DNA of 64,000 nt from Escherichia phage teqskov. Below the pieces are notes generated by a model that was not told the origin of the DNA, searched no databases, and saw nothing but the letters and a program-made list of their open reading frames with translations. The position numbers were made by a program, and so were the translations under genes. Of the stretch, positions 13,279 to 23,204 are shown piece by piece. How positions within the stretch are numbered: the stretch's first letter is position 1; each line of letters begins with the position of its first letter. The stretch is taken from the sequence record NC_054934.1, one strand, 5' to 3'.

Positions 13279-13351
13279 TGGGAATTAGCCAAGTTGGTAA
13301 GGCATAGCACTTTGACTGCTAGATGCAAAGGTTCGAGTCCTTTATTCCCAG
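13279..13351 (+). tRNA. tRNA-Gln (anticodon UUG)
   Basis: Cloverleaf folded by hand: acceptor tgggaat/attccca, anticodon loop ctTTGac, T-loop ttcgagt. Confidence 0.85.
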
Positions 13352-13352
13352 C

Positions 13353-13439
13353 GCGAGAATGGTCAAATTGGTAAAGGCACAGCACTTAAAATGCTGCGGA
13401 ATGATTTCCTTGTGGGTTCGAGTCCCACTTCTCGCACCA
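13353..13439 (+). tRNA. tRNA-Leu (anticodon UAA), long variable arm, CCA encoded
   Basis: Acceptor gcgagaa/ttctcgc, anticodon loop ctTAAaa, T-loop ttcgagt, ends ACCA. Confidence 0.85.
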
Positions 13440-13444
13440 AATTT

Positions 13445-13518
<74 letters not shown>

Positions 13519-13528
13519 ATTTAATTTA

Positions 13529-13602
13529 CTCCGTGTAGCTCAGTTTGGTAGAGCGTCTGCTTTGGGAGCAGAATGTCGTAGGTTCAAATCCTGCCGCGGA
13601 GA
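13529..13602 (+). tRNA. tRNA-Pro (anticodon UGG)
   Basis: Acceptor ctccgtg/cgcggag with one G-U, anticodon loop ttTGGga, T-loop ttcaaat. Confidence 0.8.
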
Positions 13603-13604
13603 CT

Positions 13605-13694
13605 GGAGGCGTGGCAGAGTGGTTTAATGCACCGGTCTTGAAAACCGGCAGTCGCTCCGGCGACTCATAGGTTCAAATCCTATCGCCTCCGCCA
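13605..13694 (+). tRNA. tRNA-Ser (anticodon UGA), long variable arm, CCA encoded
   Basis: Acceptor ggaggcg/cgcctcc, anticodon loop ctTGAaa, T-loop ttcaaat. Confidence 0.85.
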
Positions 13695-13699
13695 GTTTT

Positions 13700-13775
13700 G
13701 CTGATTTAGCTCAGTAGGTAGAGCAGTTGACTGTTAATCAATTGGTCCATGGTTCGAATCCATGCATGTCCGCCA
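13700..13775 (+). tRNA. tRNA-like element with intact D, anticodon (loop cuGUUaa) and T arms but an acceptor stem that cannot pair; possible hybrid or pseudo-tRNA
   Basis: 5' gctgatt against 3' catgtcc gives only 3 of 7 pairs; first ~26 nt match the remembered T4 tRNA-Thr 5' half; ends GCCA. Confidence 0.5.
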
Positions 13776-13901
13776 AACTTGTGACAGTTGTCACATTAAT
13801 ATCTACTTGACGCGATTATAGGGGTTGAACTGATCACACTTCTCTTAATTTCGTGTGAAGACATCTTGATTGTTGGAGTAGGTATTGCTGTGAACTAATT
13901 A
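13776..13901 (+). other. Non-coding spacer with hairpins (gtgacagttgtcac; cacac...gtgtg); possible small stable RNA
   Basis: No ORF; T4 encodes small stable RNAs in its tRNA region; assignment speculative. Confidence 0.2.
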
Positions 13902-13978
13902 CGGGGTGTAACTCAATTGTATAGAGTAGCGGTCCTCTAAACCGCAGGTTAAAGGTTAGAATCCTTTCACCCTGACCA
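13902..13978 (+). tRNA. tRNA-Arg (anticodon UCU), CCA encoded
   Basis: Acceptor cggggtg/caccctg with one G-U, anticodon loop ccTCTaa, T-loop ttagaat, ends ACCA. Confidence 0.8.
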
Positions 13979-13999: not shown

Positions 14000-14554
14000 A
14001 TGAGAAGTGATGTAGACTGGGACCAAATTAATTTGGCTATAAAAGCTGGATTAATATACCATGGTAATTTTGAAATAACACAAGAACTAATTGAAAATGT
14101 TGCTTTTCTTAAAATAACAGATAAGAAAAAATTCTTTTCTATGACTGAAGCCAAACGCTTGTCAAAATGGAAAGTATTTTGTAGGACTGCCGCCCTAAAT
14201 CTTTTGAAATTTAAAGATGAATTTGATATAGAAAAAAGCTATCGACAGGCTTTCGTATACATAATGGTAGATACTACAAATCCTAATTATTATAAAATAG
14301 GAAGAAGTATAGAACCTGATGTTAGAGTTATAACAGCAAATACATTTTCACCGTTTAAAAGTTTTAAAATAGTATCATTTAGATATTCCCAGGATGCAGT
14401 AGAACTTGAAAAATATATGCACAGCATTTATAATCAGGACCATATAAATGGTGAATGGTTTTTCTTTCATGACATAAGTTCCATAGTTAAAAAATTAGAT
14501 ACTAAATCTACACAATTTGAAATACCAAATGAGAAACCGGGTCGCTACCGGTAA
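14000..14554 (+). CDS. GIY-YIG superfamily / T5orf172-like domain protein (possible homing-endonuclease relative) in the tRNA region
   Basis: 184 aa; C-terminal half has FVYIMVD...YYKIGRS and GEWFFF motifs typical of T5orf172/GIY-YIG-like domains; sits where T4 carries segB. Confidence 0.5.
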   Translation: MRSDVDWDQINLAIKAGLIYHGNFEITQELIENVAFLKITDKKKFFSMTEAKRLSKWKVFCRTAALNLLKFKDEFDIEKSYRQAFVYIMVDTTNPNYYKIGRSIEPDVRVITANTFSPFKSFKIVSFRYSQDAVELEKYMHSIYNQDHINGEWFFFHDISSIVKKLDTKSTQFEIPNEKPGRYR

Positions 14555-14559
14555 GTCGT

Positions 14560-14837
14560 CGGACTGATGTTCCCTGAGTAAGGAATTGCGTTAATAATCT
14601 TTGCGTTTATTGATGCCCTCTTACATCACAGCAGAAACGGCGCACCGAATTATCGATTCGAGGAAATATCTTTGCCGTAAGCCGAGTAGCGTTTTTGACG
14701 GAACGTTCGGATATGGTCGAGATATGGCCTTTTAAAAATATTGAGTAGCGTCAACTACTTAATAACCGGGTTCAAGTCCCGGCGTTTCGTACAAACACTT
14801 GCCTTAGCAGGTGGAACCCCGACAAGGTTGCCGCAAG
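14560..14837 (+). ncRNA. Structured non-coding region with tRNA-like T-arm motif (ccgGGTTCAAGTCCcgg); candidate small stable RNA
   Basis: ~280 nt without ORF, GC-richer than surroundings, ends at a strong terminator; no full cloverleaf could be folded. Confidence 0.25.
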
Positions 14838-14841
14838 GCTT

Positions 14842-14870
14842 AGCCCCGACCGAAAGGTTGGGGCTTTTTA
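14842..14870 (+). terminator. Rho-independent terminator
   Basis: agccccgacc-gaaa-ggttggggct then TTTTT. Confidence 0.7.
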
Positions 14871-14915
14871 GTATAAATAAGTATATTAAAACCACGAATT
14901 AAAACAGGAAATAAG

Positions 14916-19059: not shown

Positions 19060-19590
<531 letters not shown>

Positions 19591-19594
19591 AGTT

Positions 19595-19624
19595 GTTTAC
19601 TTTCTCCTAGAATTGTGATAGTAT
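19595..19624 (+). promoter_or_regulatory. T4 early promoter upstream of denV
   Basis: GTTTAC ... TGaTAGTAT. Confidence 0.55.
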
Positions 19625-19649
19625 ATTCACAGTTACTTGGAGGGATAAA

Positions 19650-20066
19650 ATGACTCGTATTAATTTGACTTTAGTATCTGAACTTGCTGATCAACATTTA
19701 ATCGCAGAATACCGTGAATTGCCACGTGTTTTTGGTATAGTTCGTAAGCATGTGGCAAACGGTAAGCGCGTTAAAGATTTTAAAATATCTTCCGAGTTTA
19801 TTTTAGGTTCTGGTCATGTTACGTTCTTTTACGATAAGTTAGAATTTTTGCGAAAGCGTCAATTAGACATTATAACGGAATGCTTAAAACGAGGGTTCAG
19901 TATAAAAGATACTGAAGTTCCTGACATCAGCGATATTCCAGTAGAATGGAAAAATGATTATAATCCATGCAAATCAGCTATTAAATTGAGTCAACAACGA
20001 CTTGATGAAAAAATTTTAATGAAACCACATTGGTATAAGTATTACGGTAAAAATATTTACATTTAA
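19650..20066 (+). CDS. denV: Endonuclease V (pyrimidine dimer DNA glycosylase)
   Basis: 138 aa; [17 protein letters not shown]...WYKYYGK matches remembered T4 DenV. Confidence 0.93.
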
Positions 20067-20075
20067 AGGAAACAT

Positions 20076-20549
20076 ATGAAAACATATCAAGAATTTATCA
20101 CTGAAGCAGCTATTAATTCTCAAATTATTGCTGAATCTTTTACCGATCTTTTGAAATTTAAAAAAGGTCAAAAAATCACTGCTGTATTGGATGATGGTAC
20201 AGAAGTTGAGATGGATGTACAGGGATATAATTATGCAGTAGATGGAAAACTGTATAATAAATCTCATGCTAAATTTGATTCATTTGACGACTTTGTTAAT
20301 ACAGTTGAAGATGAAAAAACTCGTAGATCCATTGCAACTGGTGATGCTAAGGTTCTTATGGCACATGGTCATGAACGCATTCGCGCTAAACAGAATAAAA
20401 TGGGTGAAGATAATTTTGCATTAGTTGGTTATCAATCTGGTAAACAAACTTATGGCTATCAACGTACTGCTACCATGTATAATAAAAATGGTAAAATCGC
20501 TTTCGTGAATAGTAAAGGTTCTATTCAGTACGTTAAATCGTTCAAATAA
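20076..20549 (+). CDS. Internal-protein-like ORF with capsid-targeting N-terminus MKTYQEFITEA
   Basis: 157 aa; basic; ipII/ipIII locus next to denV, but size differs from T4 IPII (100 aa) and IPIII (194 aa). Confidence 0.6.
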   Translation: MKTYQEFITEAAINSQIIAESFTDLLKFKKGQKITAVLDDGTEVEMDVQGYNYAVDGKLYNKSHAKFDSFDDFVNTVEDEKTRRSIATGDAKVLMAHGHERIRAKQNKMGEDNFALVGYQSGKQTYGYQRTATMYNKNGKIAFVNSKGSIQYVKSFK

Positions 20550-20690
20550 TATGGGAACAACCTGGACCTCATGATTCTATGAGGGATTCCCGCCAACCTG
20601 TAATAAGGTCGAGCCTGAGTGCGGTAATGGGTAAATACAGAAATGGACAATTCATGCGCCACGGAATGGCCCAAATTTAGAGAGAATAAA

Positions 20691-21230
20691 ATGAGAACAT
20701 TTTTAACTGGTCCTTATCTATCCCTGATGAATGCTTTTACACACCATTCTGACGCTAGAGTAGAAGAAATTTGTAAAAACGAATATATCCCGCCATTTGA
20801 AGAATTACTTAAACAGTACTGCACACTTCGACTAGATGGTGGACGTCAATCTGGTAAATCAACTGCAGTAACTAATTTTGCCGCTAATTGGTTGTATGAC
20901 GGTGGAACAGTTATTGTTCTTTCTAATACTTCAGCTTACGCTAAAATTTCTGCAAATAACATTAAAAAGGAATTTTCGCGTTATTCTAATGATGATATAC
21001 GTTTTCGTTTATTTACTGATTCTGTACGCAGTTTTATTGGTAATAAAGGAAGTAAGTTCAGAGGTTTATCGCTTTCGCGAATTTTGTATATAATTGACGA
21101 GCCTGTCAAATCTCCTGATATGGATAAGATTTATAGTGTCCATATTGACACTGTACACTGCTGCTGTAATATTAAATGTTGTATTGGTGGTATTACTCGT
21201 CCACAGTTTTTCGTAATCGGAATGCAATGA
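20691..21230 (+). CDS. P-loop (Walker A) NTPase-like hypothetical protein
   Basis: ATG 20691 with gagaataaaATG context; GGRQSGKST motif. Confidence 0.45.
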   Translation: MRTFLTGPYLSLMNAFTHHSDARVEEICKNEYIPPFEELLKQYCTLRLDGGRQSGKSTAVTNFAANWLYDGGTVIVLSNTSAYAKISANNIKKEFSRYSNDDIRFRLFTDSVRSFIGNKGSKFRGLSLSRILYIIDEPVKSPDMDKIYSVHIDTVHCCCNIKCCIGGITRPQFFVIGMQ

Positions 21231-21556
21231 TGACAGACACTCAGCTTTTCGAATATCTTTATTTTTCGCCAAAAACTATTAAAAATAAATTGGTGAATCA
21301 TTTTGAAATTTTGGCAAATAATAACACTTTGAGCGAATTTTATCCCAAGCAATACAAATTACAAAAAGGTATATTCAAAGGATGCAGAGTTTTGTGCACT
21401 GCTCCTAATGCACGGCTAATGAATAAAATTCCATATTTTACCATGGAATTTATTGATGGACCTTTTAAAGGATTAATTACCCAAAGTTTAATGGCATATG
21501 ATTCTGAGCCATTTTTAATTAAAGAACAATCTTGGATAAATTTATTTTCTAATTGA
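21227..21556 (+). CDS. Hypothetical protein
   Basis: ~109 aa from ATG 21227 overlapping upstream stop. Confidence 0.4.
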
Positions 21557-21563
21557 GGTTTAT

Positions 21564-21926
21564 ATGAAAGCATATCAAATTCTTGAAGGCACACATAAAG
21601 GCACTATTTATTTTGAAGATGGTATTCAAGCACGAATTATTGTCTCTAAAACCTTTAAAGAGGACTCTTTTGTAGACCCAGAAATTTTCTACGGTTTGCA
21701 TGCCCGTGAAATTGAAATTGAGCCACAGCCTACAGTTAAAATTGAAGGTGGTCAACACCTGAACGTTAACGTTCTGCGTCGTGAAACTCTGGAAGATGCA
21801 GTTAAGCATCCGGAAAAATATCCGCAGCTGACCATCCGTGTATCCGGTTATGCAGTTCGCTTTAACTCTCTGACTCCGGAACAGCAGCGCGACGTTATCG
21901 CTCGTACCTTCACCGAGAGTTTGTAA
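21564..21926 (+). CDS. Autonomous glycyl radical cofactor (GrcA/YfiD-like; T4 Y06I-type)
   Basis: 120 aa; C-terminal ~60 aa ([61 protein letters not shown]) matches remembered E. coli GrcA, with RVSGY glycyl-radical motif. Confidence 0.85.
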
Positions 21927-22147
21927 TGGCAAAGATAATTATTGAAGGTTCTAAAGATGTGCTAAATGCTTTCGCCGAGTGGTTTAGTAATTCAGGCGAA
22001 CAGCAATTTAACGAAGCGTGGAATATGGGTGATATTGATGGAATTTATCCTACTACAGAAATTTCTGTTCAGGGATATGGCATTCATGAACCTATTCGTT
22101 TAGTTGAATACGATTTATGTACTGGTGAGGAAGTCAAATATGATTGA
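21926..22147 (+). CDS. Hypothetical protein
   Basis: 73 aa ORF, stop/start coupled to neighbours. Confidence 0.4.
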   Translation: MAKIIIEGSKDVLNAFAEWFSNSGEQQFNEAWNMGDIDGIYPTTEISVQGYGIHEPIRLVEYDLCTGEEVKYD

Positions 22148-22742: not shown

Positions 22743-23204
22743 ATGACTATCAATACAGAAGTTTTTATCCGTCGAAATAAGCTTCGTCGTCACTTTGAGT
22801 CGGAGTTTCGTCAAATTAACAATGAGATTCGTGAGGCATCAAAAGCAGCAGGAGTCTCATCGTTTCATCTAAAATATTCTCAACATCTTCTTGATCGTGC
22901 AATTCAACGGGAGATTGATGAGACATATGTTTTTGAATTATTCCATAAAATAAAAGACCATGTTTTAGAAGTTAATGAATTCCTGAGTATGCCTCCGCGT
23001 CCTGACATTGACGAGGATTTTATTGATGGGGTTGAATATCGTCCTGGACGTTTAGAAATCACAGATGGAAATCTTTGGCTTGGATTTACGGTTTGTAAGC
23101 CTAATGAGAAGTTCAAAAACCCGTCACTTCAATGCAGGATGGCAATTATCAACAGTCGTCGTTTACCAGGAAAGGCTTCTAAAGCAGTAATTAAAACTCA
23201 ATGA
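22743..23204 (+). CDS. regB: Site-specific endoribonuclease RegB
   Basis: 153 aa; matches remembered T4 RegB in sequence and length. Confidence 0.88.
   Translation: MTINTEVFIRRNKLRRHFESEFRQINNEIREASKAAGVSSFHLKYSQHLLDRAIQREIDETYVFELFHKIKDHVLEVNEFLSMPPRPDIDEDFIDGVEYRPGRLEITDGNLWLGFTVCKPNEKFKNPSLQCRMAIINSRRLPGKASKAVIKTQ

Follow-up and report, generated by a model that had tools for sequence, protein, structure and literature searches.

The gene vs.6 of T4-like phages encodes an autonomous glycyl radical cofactor of the GrcA type, a small stand-alone protein that carries a glycyl radical domain. The copy considered here lies at 21564..21926 (+) of a 64,000-nucleotide (nt) stretch of Escherichia phage teqskov (sequence record NC_054934.1), a Tequatrovirus, and this whole stretch is referred to below as the window. 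The open reading frame (ORF) comprises 120 amino acids plus a stop codon and corresponds to the T4 protein Y06I; the gene and its function are already known. Comparison with phage and bacterial sequences indicates that vs.6 is very probably an old, full-length phage homologue of bacterial grcA whose 3′ segment was overwritten by host DNA, through conversion and not fusion, and whose product serves as a spare part for pyruvate formate-lyase (PFL). In the E. coli-infecting genera Tequatrovirus and Mosigvirus, E. coli grcA would have replaced the DNA of the conserved glycyl radical domain via homology-dependent recombination, leaving a gene-conversion patch bounded on its 5′ side by the edge of recognizable homology and on its 3′ side within the last few codons.

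A Host-Identical Tract in the 3′ Half of vs.6

The host-derived conversion tract spans 21742..21910 (+), a run of 169 nt that is 100% identical to nt 200-368 of E. coli grcA, encodes GrcA residues 68-123, and covers most of the structured glycyl radical domain. The protein match continues to the C-terminus, with agreement at 60/60 positions between vs.6 residues 61-120 and residues 68-127 of E. coli GrcA, and the Pfam Gly_radical model (PF01228) is matched with 66.8 bits (cut-off 22.2). Within this segment, the RVSGY glycyl radical motif is encoded at 21837..21851 (+), where Gly95 (21846-21848) is equivalent to Gly102 of GrcA and Gly734 of PFL in alignments to the Protein Data Bank (PDB) entries 6OWR and 1H16. 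A first-pass annotation, made from the sequence alone, had recognized the similarity of the C-terminal ~60 residues to GrcA/YfiD together with the RVSGY motif, and had derived the 3′ half of the gene from host grcA with a codon switch at about 21745. The alignments bear out each of these points and set the true switch at 21742, within 3 nt of the proposed position.

Over 21742-21926, the DNA is 97.3% identical (180/185) to grcA of the best-matching E. coli genomes, so the low nucleotide identity that might have spoken against a host origin is not seen. In all 5,426 complete E. coli genomes, grcA falls within an identity band of 95-99% to this segment, and of 81 bacterial grcA genes, that of E. 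coli is nearest to the tract. The tract is also more similar to E. coli grcA than is the grcA of any other species compared, the next being a cryptic Escherichia sp. (98.9%) and Citrobacter amalonaticus (92.4%). The expected shift in composition was likewise confirmed. The guanine plus cytosine (GC) content rises from 35.4% in 21564-21741 to 50.3% in the tract, compared with a window mean of 34.8% (z 3.6), and only 0.23% of 167-nt windows are equally GC-rich, the others belonging to the tRNA cluster and the rnaC/rnaD region. At third codon positions, the GC fraction is 0.44 in the tract and 0.24 in the 5′ part. Codon choice follows the same pattern when the tract is set against the other phage ORFs, with CTG for Leu (5/5 vs. 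6.7%), CCG for Pro (3/3 vs. 16%), AAC for Asn (3/3 vs. 22%), and ATC for Ile (2/2 vs. 14%).

Between the tract and E. coli grcA there are 0 synonymous differences over 42.8 synonymous sites (synonymous divergence, dS = 0), and the non-optimal host codons GTA, CAA, AAG, CAT, and TAT are also common to both. A Slopekvirus orthologue (L015) encodes the same protein segment with no nonsynonymous differences (Nd = 0), yet shows 28/42 synonymous differences (dS about 1.6). Since synonymous differences are absent, non-preferred codons are shared, and E. coli is the closest relative, the identity exceeds what protein constraint and codon bias together would produce, and the tract is E. coli DNA. There is next to no chance that no transfer took place and that the resemblance arose by convergence, with high expression selecting for the codons preferred in E. 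coli under strong protein constraint. The tract does use CTG, CGT, CCG, and AAC, which are typical of highly expressed E. coli genes, and the protein segment is very strongly conserved across phages. However, convergence of this kind is contradicted by the agreement at all ~43 synonymous sites, non-preferred codons included, and by the 5′ half, which lies on the same mRNA and lacks codon adaptation. In addition, the E. coli-infecting Krischvirus and the T5-like phages possess the same domain at only 73-76% nt identity to E. coli grcA, and Klebsiella phages display K. pneumoniae-specific bases at 19/22 diagnostic sites rather than generic optimal codons.

Contamination or an assembly artefact was also considered as the source of the host-like DNA and was ruled out, as the tract is present in >630 independent phage records, the T4 reference included.

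Downstream of the tract, an unconverted tail at 21911..21923 (+) comprises the last five codons, each of which has one synonymous mismatch to E. coli (21911, 21914, 21917, 21920, and 21921). The confinement of all five mismatches to the last 5/61 codons has a chance probability of about 2e-7 to 4e-6. This tail differs among close relatives, with one mismatch in phage OES_C-2 and five in the window.

Probable Conversion of an Older Phage Gene

Upstream of the tract lies the phage-type 5′ part of the gene (21564..21741, +), which ends with the first base of codon 60, uses AT-rich codons, and encodes a diverged counterpart of the N-terminal half of GrcA. The first-pass annotation had proposed that host DNA was fused here to a phage-derived N-terminus, and it is on this point that its interpretation has to be revised. 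In a fusion, a host grcA fragment captured by illegitimate recombination would have been joined to an unrelated phage N-terminal ORF to form a new chimera. The sharp switch of composition and identity at 21742 does resemble such a joint, and the N-terminal half is only ~35% identical to that of GrcA over 40 residues in pairwise BLASTP (E 5e-6). Nevertheless, a fusion is very unlikely. When profiles of 13 phage and 14 bacterial GrcA N-terminal halves were compared with hhalign, the halves alone proved homologous end to end (probability 97%, E 1.1e-10, residues 1-60 against 2-67), and the phage copies L022-L027 have N-termini that are visibly intermediate and clearly GrcA-like. Moreover, three other genera (Karamvirus, Slopekvirus, and Krischvirus) have syntenic orthologues that resemble GrcA over their full length and already possess the radical domain in non-host codons. 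The Karamvirus orthologues have the vs.8/vs.7/vs.5/vs.4 neighborhood in common, and those of Slopekvirus are followed by vs.4. Across orthologues in the other T4-like genera, the DNA of the C-terminal domain is 74-84% identical to bacterial grcA (81 compared), and in Krischvirus (RB49-like, with E. coli as host) the 3′ half of vs.6 is only 74-75% identical to E. coli grcA. The gene is conserved in all T4-like genomes compared in an earlier study (PMC1524935).

The limits of the host-derived DNA also argue against fusion. No host flank was found beyond the vs.6 TAA, the stop codon being precisely where identity ends. With 0/751 matching phage records covering at least 80% of grcA, none of these records has the E. 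coli-type 5′ half of the gene, and among the 30 matches listed, all phage matches to E. coli grcA begin at grcA nt 200. Because the last five codons are phage-type synonymous variants, the phage already had a homologous 3′ end when the event took place, and this end would have served as the 3′ arm of the exchange.

At the 5′ junction, the last upstream mismatches are at 21738-21741, and the crossover must lie within the following 10 nt or so (21742..21751, +), in the stretch TTGAAGGTGG. This stretch is present or nearly so in unconverted phage orthologues, which match the host at the junction (CC31, GTTGAAGGTGG; Slopekvirus, GTGGAAGGTGG). The junction falls seven residues into the structured domain of GrcA (61-127), just past the disordered half (1-60), with both regions delimited according to PMC8683613. 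The gene thus combines a donor-like composition and donor-specific alleles with a phage-type homologous framework that has no donor flanks, as is expected of host-to-phage conversion.

The closest parallel described is that of psbA and psbD of cyanophages, host-like metabolic genes of T4-like phages in which GC content is patchy and segments have been exchanged with the host copy (Zeidner 2005; Sullivan 2006, PMC1484495). The case of vs.6 differs in that an identity of up to 100% allows the donor species to be named, the ends of the patch are defined and lie close to a protein-domain boundary, and the patch is found independently in two phage genera with two donors. The recipients differ as well, being hydroxymethylcytosine-containing T-even phages that degrade host DNA.

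Relationship to GrcA and PFL

The product of vs.6 resembles E. coli GrcA/YfiD in being a stand-alone protein of ~14 kDa with a two-part build, in which an N-terminal half (disordered in GrcA) precedes the structured glycyl radical domain. The two proteins agree in all of their last 60 residues, and their N-terminal halves are homologous. The phage protein differs in that its N-terminal half has diverged strongly and is 7 residues shorter, and its gene belongs to a lytic phage and retains phage codon usage in the 5′ half. Its best match in the PDB is GrcA (6OWR, E 8.6e-42), and searches with the whole protein or the radical domain return GrcA at E 2e-35 to 9e-42, PFL at about 1e-26, and many PFL-family enzymes. 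By domain content, size, and N-terminal homology, vs.6 represents a diverged phage subfamily of GrcA, and RefSeq phage records label it GrcA despite a score below the family-specific cut-off discussed further on.

The C-terminal domain is also very close in sequence to the C-terminal glycyl radical domain of PFL itself (PflB residues 700-759, E 4e-26; PDB 1H16 residues 697-759, E 5e-26), the segment for which the spare part substitutes. However, the tract derives from grcA and not from pflB, as grcA (97.3% nt identity) is the best-matching place in every E. coli genome.

A Second Donor in Klebsiella Phages

A second, independent host-to-phage conversion is found in Jiaodavirus, a genus of T4-like Klebsiella phages, with K. 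pneumoniae grcA as the donor. Over nt 202-369/374, a total of 106 phage records match K. pneumoniae grcA at 95-98.2% identity, and those listed are nearly all Klebsiella phages. The event starts at grcA nt 202, the same 5′ boundary as in the E. coli phages, and its 3′ boundary is a few codons before the stop. In the Jiaodavirus Nispero (L177), the gene is intact and its GC content rises from 36.5% to 56.2%, and the IMG/VR contig L081 has a 146-nt exact run with K. pneumoniae grcA. Klebsiella-type tracts occur in addition in KPV15 (L029/L176), in which vs.6 is split by a frameshift into two annotated coding sequences, and in L171; that of Phi_KR8 is more diverged (93.6%).

The grcA genes of E. 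coli and K. pneumoniae differ at 22 sites in the segment, which permits the donors to be told apart. The window has the E. coli base at 21/22 of these sites, the exception being 21914, in the tail outside the tract, and T4 and Mosigvirus have the E. coli base at 21-22 of 22. KPV15, by comparison, has the K. pneumoniae base at 19/22 sites, with the exceptions at both ends. Klebsiella-type residues were transferred along with the DNA, giving LLDAVEH in place of LEDAVKH. The Klebsiella-phage tract is only 86-89% identical to a panel of 80 bacterial species and at first seemed an intermediate or orphan sequence, because that panel did not contain K. pneumoniae. The K. pneumoniae grcA used here was taken from a 5.37-Mb record (L175, CP125156.1) that is filed in PLSDB as 'plasmid unnamed2' but is evidently the chromosome. 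When Slopekvirus was checked for a short Klebsiella-like patch around LLDAVEH, no convincing run was found (longest 17-20 nt). With donors of two species, vs.6 is a recurrent target of host-to-phage conversion.

Three further sets of records came to light in the same searches. The Klebsiella phage vB_Kpn_AM_K4 (H184, 288,685 bp) contains a K. pneumoniae-like grcA tract, 95.9% identical over nt 199-369 and annotated as grcA; the record is unusually long and represents either a different phage lineage or a concatenated assembly. The IMG/VR contig L032 encodes a Yersinia-like full GrcA (91% nt identity to Y. artesiana), and IMG/VR contigs among L072-L082 that were matched by the vs.6 query encode PflB C-termini. 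These bacterial-type sequences in L032 and L072-L082 are probably host DNA in prophage-type or misclassified contigs.

Direction of Transfer

Both the host-like composition of the tract and the pattern of vertical descent seen in E. coli grcA show that the transfer was from host to phage. Relative to other Enterobacteriaceae, E. coli grcA is 87-92% identical in its 3′ half and 84-88% identical in its 5′ half, and it is present in all 5,426 genomes, adjoining ung in the one genome examined. Two-way intragenic exchange between host and phage has been reported for cyanophage psbA (PMC1484495), and on that precedent E. coli and Klebsiella might have acquired the 3′ halves of their grcA genes from phages. 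This reversal is extremely improbable. The composition of the tract resembles that of the host and not that of the phage; the two halves of grcA diverge in step, as vertical descent predicts; and the gene is ubiquitous in E. coli, at a site beside ung in the genome examined. Furthermore, E. coli and K. pneumoniae grcA are separated by 22 sites, and there the two phage groups agree with their respective hosts.

One Conversion or Many

When the window is compared with Mosigvirus copies, vs.6 shows a dS of 0.33-0.40 in its 5′ half and of 0-0.16 in the tract (Fisher p 2e-4 to 0.1), and the vs.7 and vs.5 flanks are 14-25% diverged. Since its divergence is below that of both the 5′ half and the flanks, the tract dates from after the surrounding DNA had split. 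At its 3′ side the tract ends raggedly, with several combinations of host-type and phage-type tail codons. Substitutions specific to Mosigvirus were not found as E. coli alleles when the most diverged Mosigvirus tract was compared with all E. coli genomes (best 95.7%), and they look like changes that took place after the transfer.

A single conversion per host lineage, with the low divergence between the Tequatrovirus and Mosigvirus tracts resulting from later exchange of the patch between phages in co-infection, has a little under an even chance of being correct. The 5′ boundary common to all E. coli-phage copies is consistent with such a history, as are the Mosigvirus-specific substitutions, and the numbers of differences from E. 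coli (0-6) fit one Poisson process by our own estimate. However, independent events would also produce the same 5′ boundary, as the Klebsiella event has it; the ragged 3′ boundaries include all combinations of host-type and phage-type tail codons; and some copies in both genera have only 0-1 differences from E. coli (L009 and OES_C-2). It has also to be asked whether vs.6 is a standing conversion hotspot in T-even-type phages, its radical domain repeatedly overwritten by the grcA allele of the current host in an adaptive tracking that keeps the spare part matched to host PFL and its activase, even in host-specific residues such as LLDAVEH in Klebsiella. This is a tentative proposal and rather doubtful, but if true, host tracking works by recombination with the very chromosome that the phage is destroying, a process not known to have been described earlier.

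Probable Function as a Spare Part

The biochemical literature refers to T4 Vs.6 as Y06I (Wagner et al., 2001, BBRC 285:456, cited in PMC8683613). According to PMC8683613, Y06I is activated by the PFL activase (PFL-AE) and rescues oxygen-cleaved PFL (Wagner 2001 therein); the activase places a glycyl radical on the spare part, which binds PFL cleaved at Gly734 and restores its activity. The same source reports that the C-terminal half of YfiD has the fold of PFL residues 693-759, and that residues 1-60 of GrcA are disordered but help in the binding of cleaved PFL and in activation (PMC8683613). Given identity to Y06I at 119/120 residues and an identical radical domain, the PFL spare-part role would hold for the vs.6 protein of the window. 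The host radical-SAM activase PflA would introduce the radical at the Gly of the RVSGY motif, the C-terminal domain would replace the segment that PFL loses upon oxygen cleavage at Gly734 so that activity is regained, and the N-terminal half would aid binding and activation. For the phage, the gain would be that fermentation of pyruvate to acetyl-CoA and formate, and with it ATP formation, is kept up in the micro-oxic gut after host expression has been shut off.

T4 also encodes an oxygen-sensitive class III ribonucleotide reductase, NrdD, and a gene of the same origin could in principle have phage NrdD or another glycyl radical enzyme, and not PFL, as its target during infection. A role of vs.6 in nucleotide metabolism was suggested from its Pfam match (PMC1524935), and spare parts for other glycyl radical enzymes are the subject of speculation in PMC8683613. 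Nonetheless, such a target is highly improbable. The C-terminal domain is identical to that of GrcA and near PflB 700-759, and no NrdD chain occurs among the PDB matches at E ≤ 10, at which PFL is found at 4e-26; vs.6 thus does not show the similarity to the NrdD radical domain that would be expected. The activation of Y06I by PFL-AE and its rescue of cleaved PFL likewise point to PFL, as reported in PMC8683613 (Wagner 2001 therein). In addition, the domain tracks the host GrcA allele, including two Klebsiella amino-acid differences, which argues for host partners. The first-pass annotation had suggested that the spare domain repairs either PFL or the phage NrdD; the former is in line with what has been published for T4 Y06I, and the latter finds no counterpart in these searches.

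Points Weighing Against the Proposed Account

Several considerations weigh against the account of vs.6 as a converted phage grcA homologue that acts as a PFL spare part. With respect to family membership, the protein scores 153.3 bits with the NCBIfam GrcA equivalog model TIGR04365 and so misses its cut-off of 170 bits, because the N-terminal half is diverged; with the same model, the Slopekvirus orthologue (L015) scores 155.5 bits and E. coli GrcA 233.9. As for the mechanism, the crossover would have had to take place in a junction of only ~10 shared nt, fewer than classical homologous recombination would normally use. Exchange of this kind should also be rare in T4, given its hydroxymethylcytosine and its degradation of host DNA. 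With respect to tempo, the data for the E. coli phages fit repeated conversion and a single conversion followed by phage-phage exchange alike, and the Mosigvirus copies differ too little to separate the two. Finally, the function of the protein of this phage is assigned by resemblance to characterized relatives, and the presumed benefit to the phage would be a supply of fermentative acetyl-CoA and ATP when the host makes no new PFL or GrcA.

Significance

To our knowledge, only two spare-part proteins have been validated, T4 Y06I being one of them, and T4 is regarded as having almost no nucleotide similarity to its host. The stretch of 169 nt identical to the E. coli chromosome stands in contrast to that view. 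As a GrcA-like phage gene, vs.6 is ordinary, and it is the picture at the DNA level that is worth keeping. No description of the nucleotide-level host identity or of the Klebsiella parallel was found in the literature searched, and an earlier remark is possible; the search yielded only citations of Wagner 2001 and the Pfam remark in PMC1524935.

The tract provides a clean natural marker of recombination between a virulent, host-DNA-degrading phage and its host, and the transfer of synonymous markers from grcA to vs.6 would be a simple assay target. It may also serve as a practical cue for host prediction, as nearly all phage records listed have a vs.6 tract that points to the correct host genus; the exceptions include Yersinia phage phiD1, with an E. 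coli allele, and Salmonella phage PSE-D1, with a K. pneumoniae allele.

Gene Identity and Neighborhood

The vs.6 DNA of the window is 100% identical to that of phages JK1 and JY01, and 755 phage records match it, 743/755 of them over at least 80% of its length. The T4 counterpart is vs.6 (NC_000866, 63557-63919), to which RefSeq gives the name 'autonomous glycyl radical cofactor GrcA'. The two are the same gene, each of 363 nt, with the order vs.7-vs.6-vs.5 upstream of regB and an E. coli-identical 3′ tract in both. They differ in one residue (R73 here, H73 in the T4 reference) and a few synonymous sites, and the tail has five mismatches to E. coli here compared with two in T4. The match to phrog_1209, the orthologous group of T4 vs.6, extends over the full length (1-120 against 1-121, E 1.2e-62).

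The position of the gene between vs.7 and vs.5 in the denV-regB region is conserved, with neighbors as in T4, phiD1, and IMG/VR Tequatrovirus loci. The T4 lysozyme gene e (19096-19590) and denV (19650-20066) lie upstream, and regB (22743-23204) lies downstream. By direct reading of the sequence, a Shine-Dalgarno GAGG at 21555..21558 (+) is placed 5 nt before the ATG and overlaps the TGA stop of vs.7 (21554-21556). At the other end, the vs.6 stop overlaps the vs.5 start in TAATG (21924..21928, +), and it is at this stop codon that identity to host DNA ceases. A scan for promoters and terminators around vs.6 found sites no more numerous than in shuffled sequence. An antisense ORF of 127 amino acids (21549-21932, minus strand) spans vs.6 from end to end; lying opposite a gene that is itself well supported, it is a purely mechanical ORF with no evidence in its favor.

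The internal-protein region upstream is rearranged relative to T4. In the window, 19096-21230 contains e, denV, a 157-amino-acid internal-virion-protein-like gene, and a vs.8-like gene, an order also present in phiD1, compared with the T4 order e, ipIII, ipII, denV, vs.8. Further upstream, a T4-type tRNA cluster at 13279-13978 encodes tRNAs for Gln, Leu, Gly, Pro, Ser, and Arg (ARAGORN), and a truncated tRNA-like match at 13707-13764 was obtained with Rfam only (model positions 8-63). A GC-rich, structured non-coding stretch at ~14600-14900 (minimum free energy -106 kcal/mol, z -5.9) matches no Rfam family at its gathering score and corresponds to rnaC/rnaD in the annotation of phage Aplg8. 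Between tRNA-Arg and rnaC/rnaD, an ORF of 184 amino acids (14000-14554) occupies the place at which T4 has the homing endonuclease gene segB.

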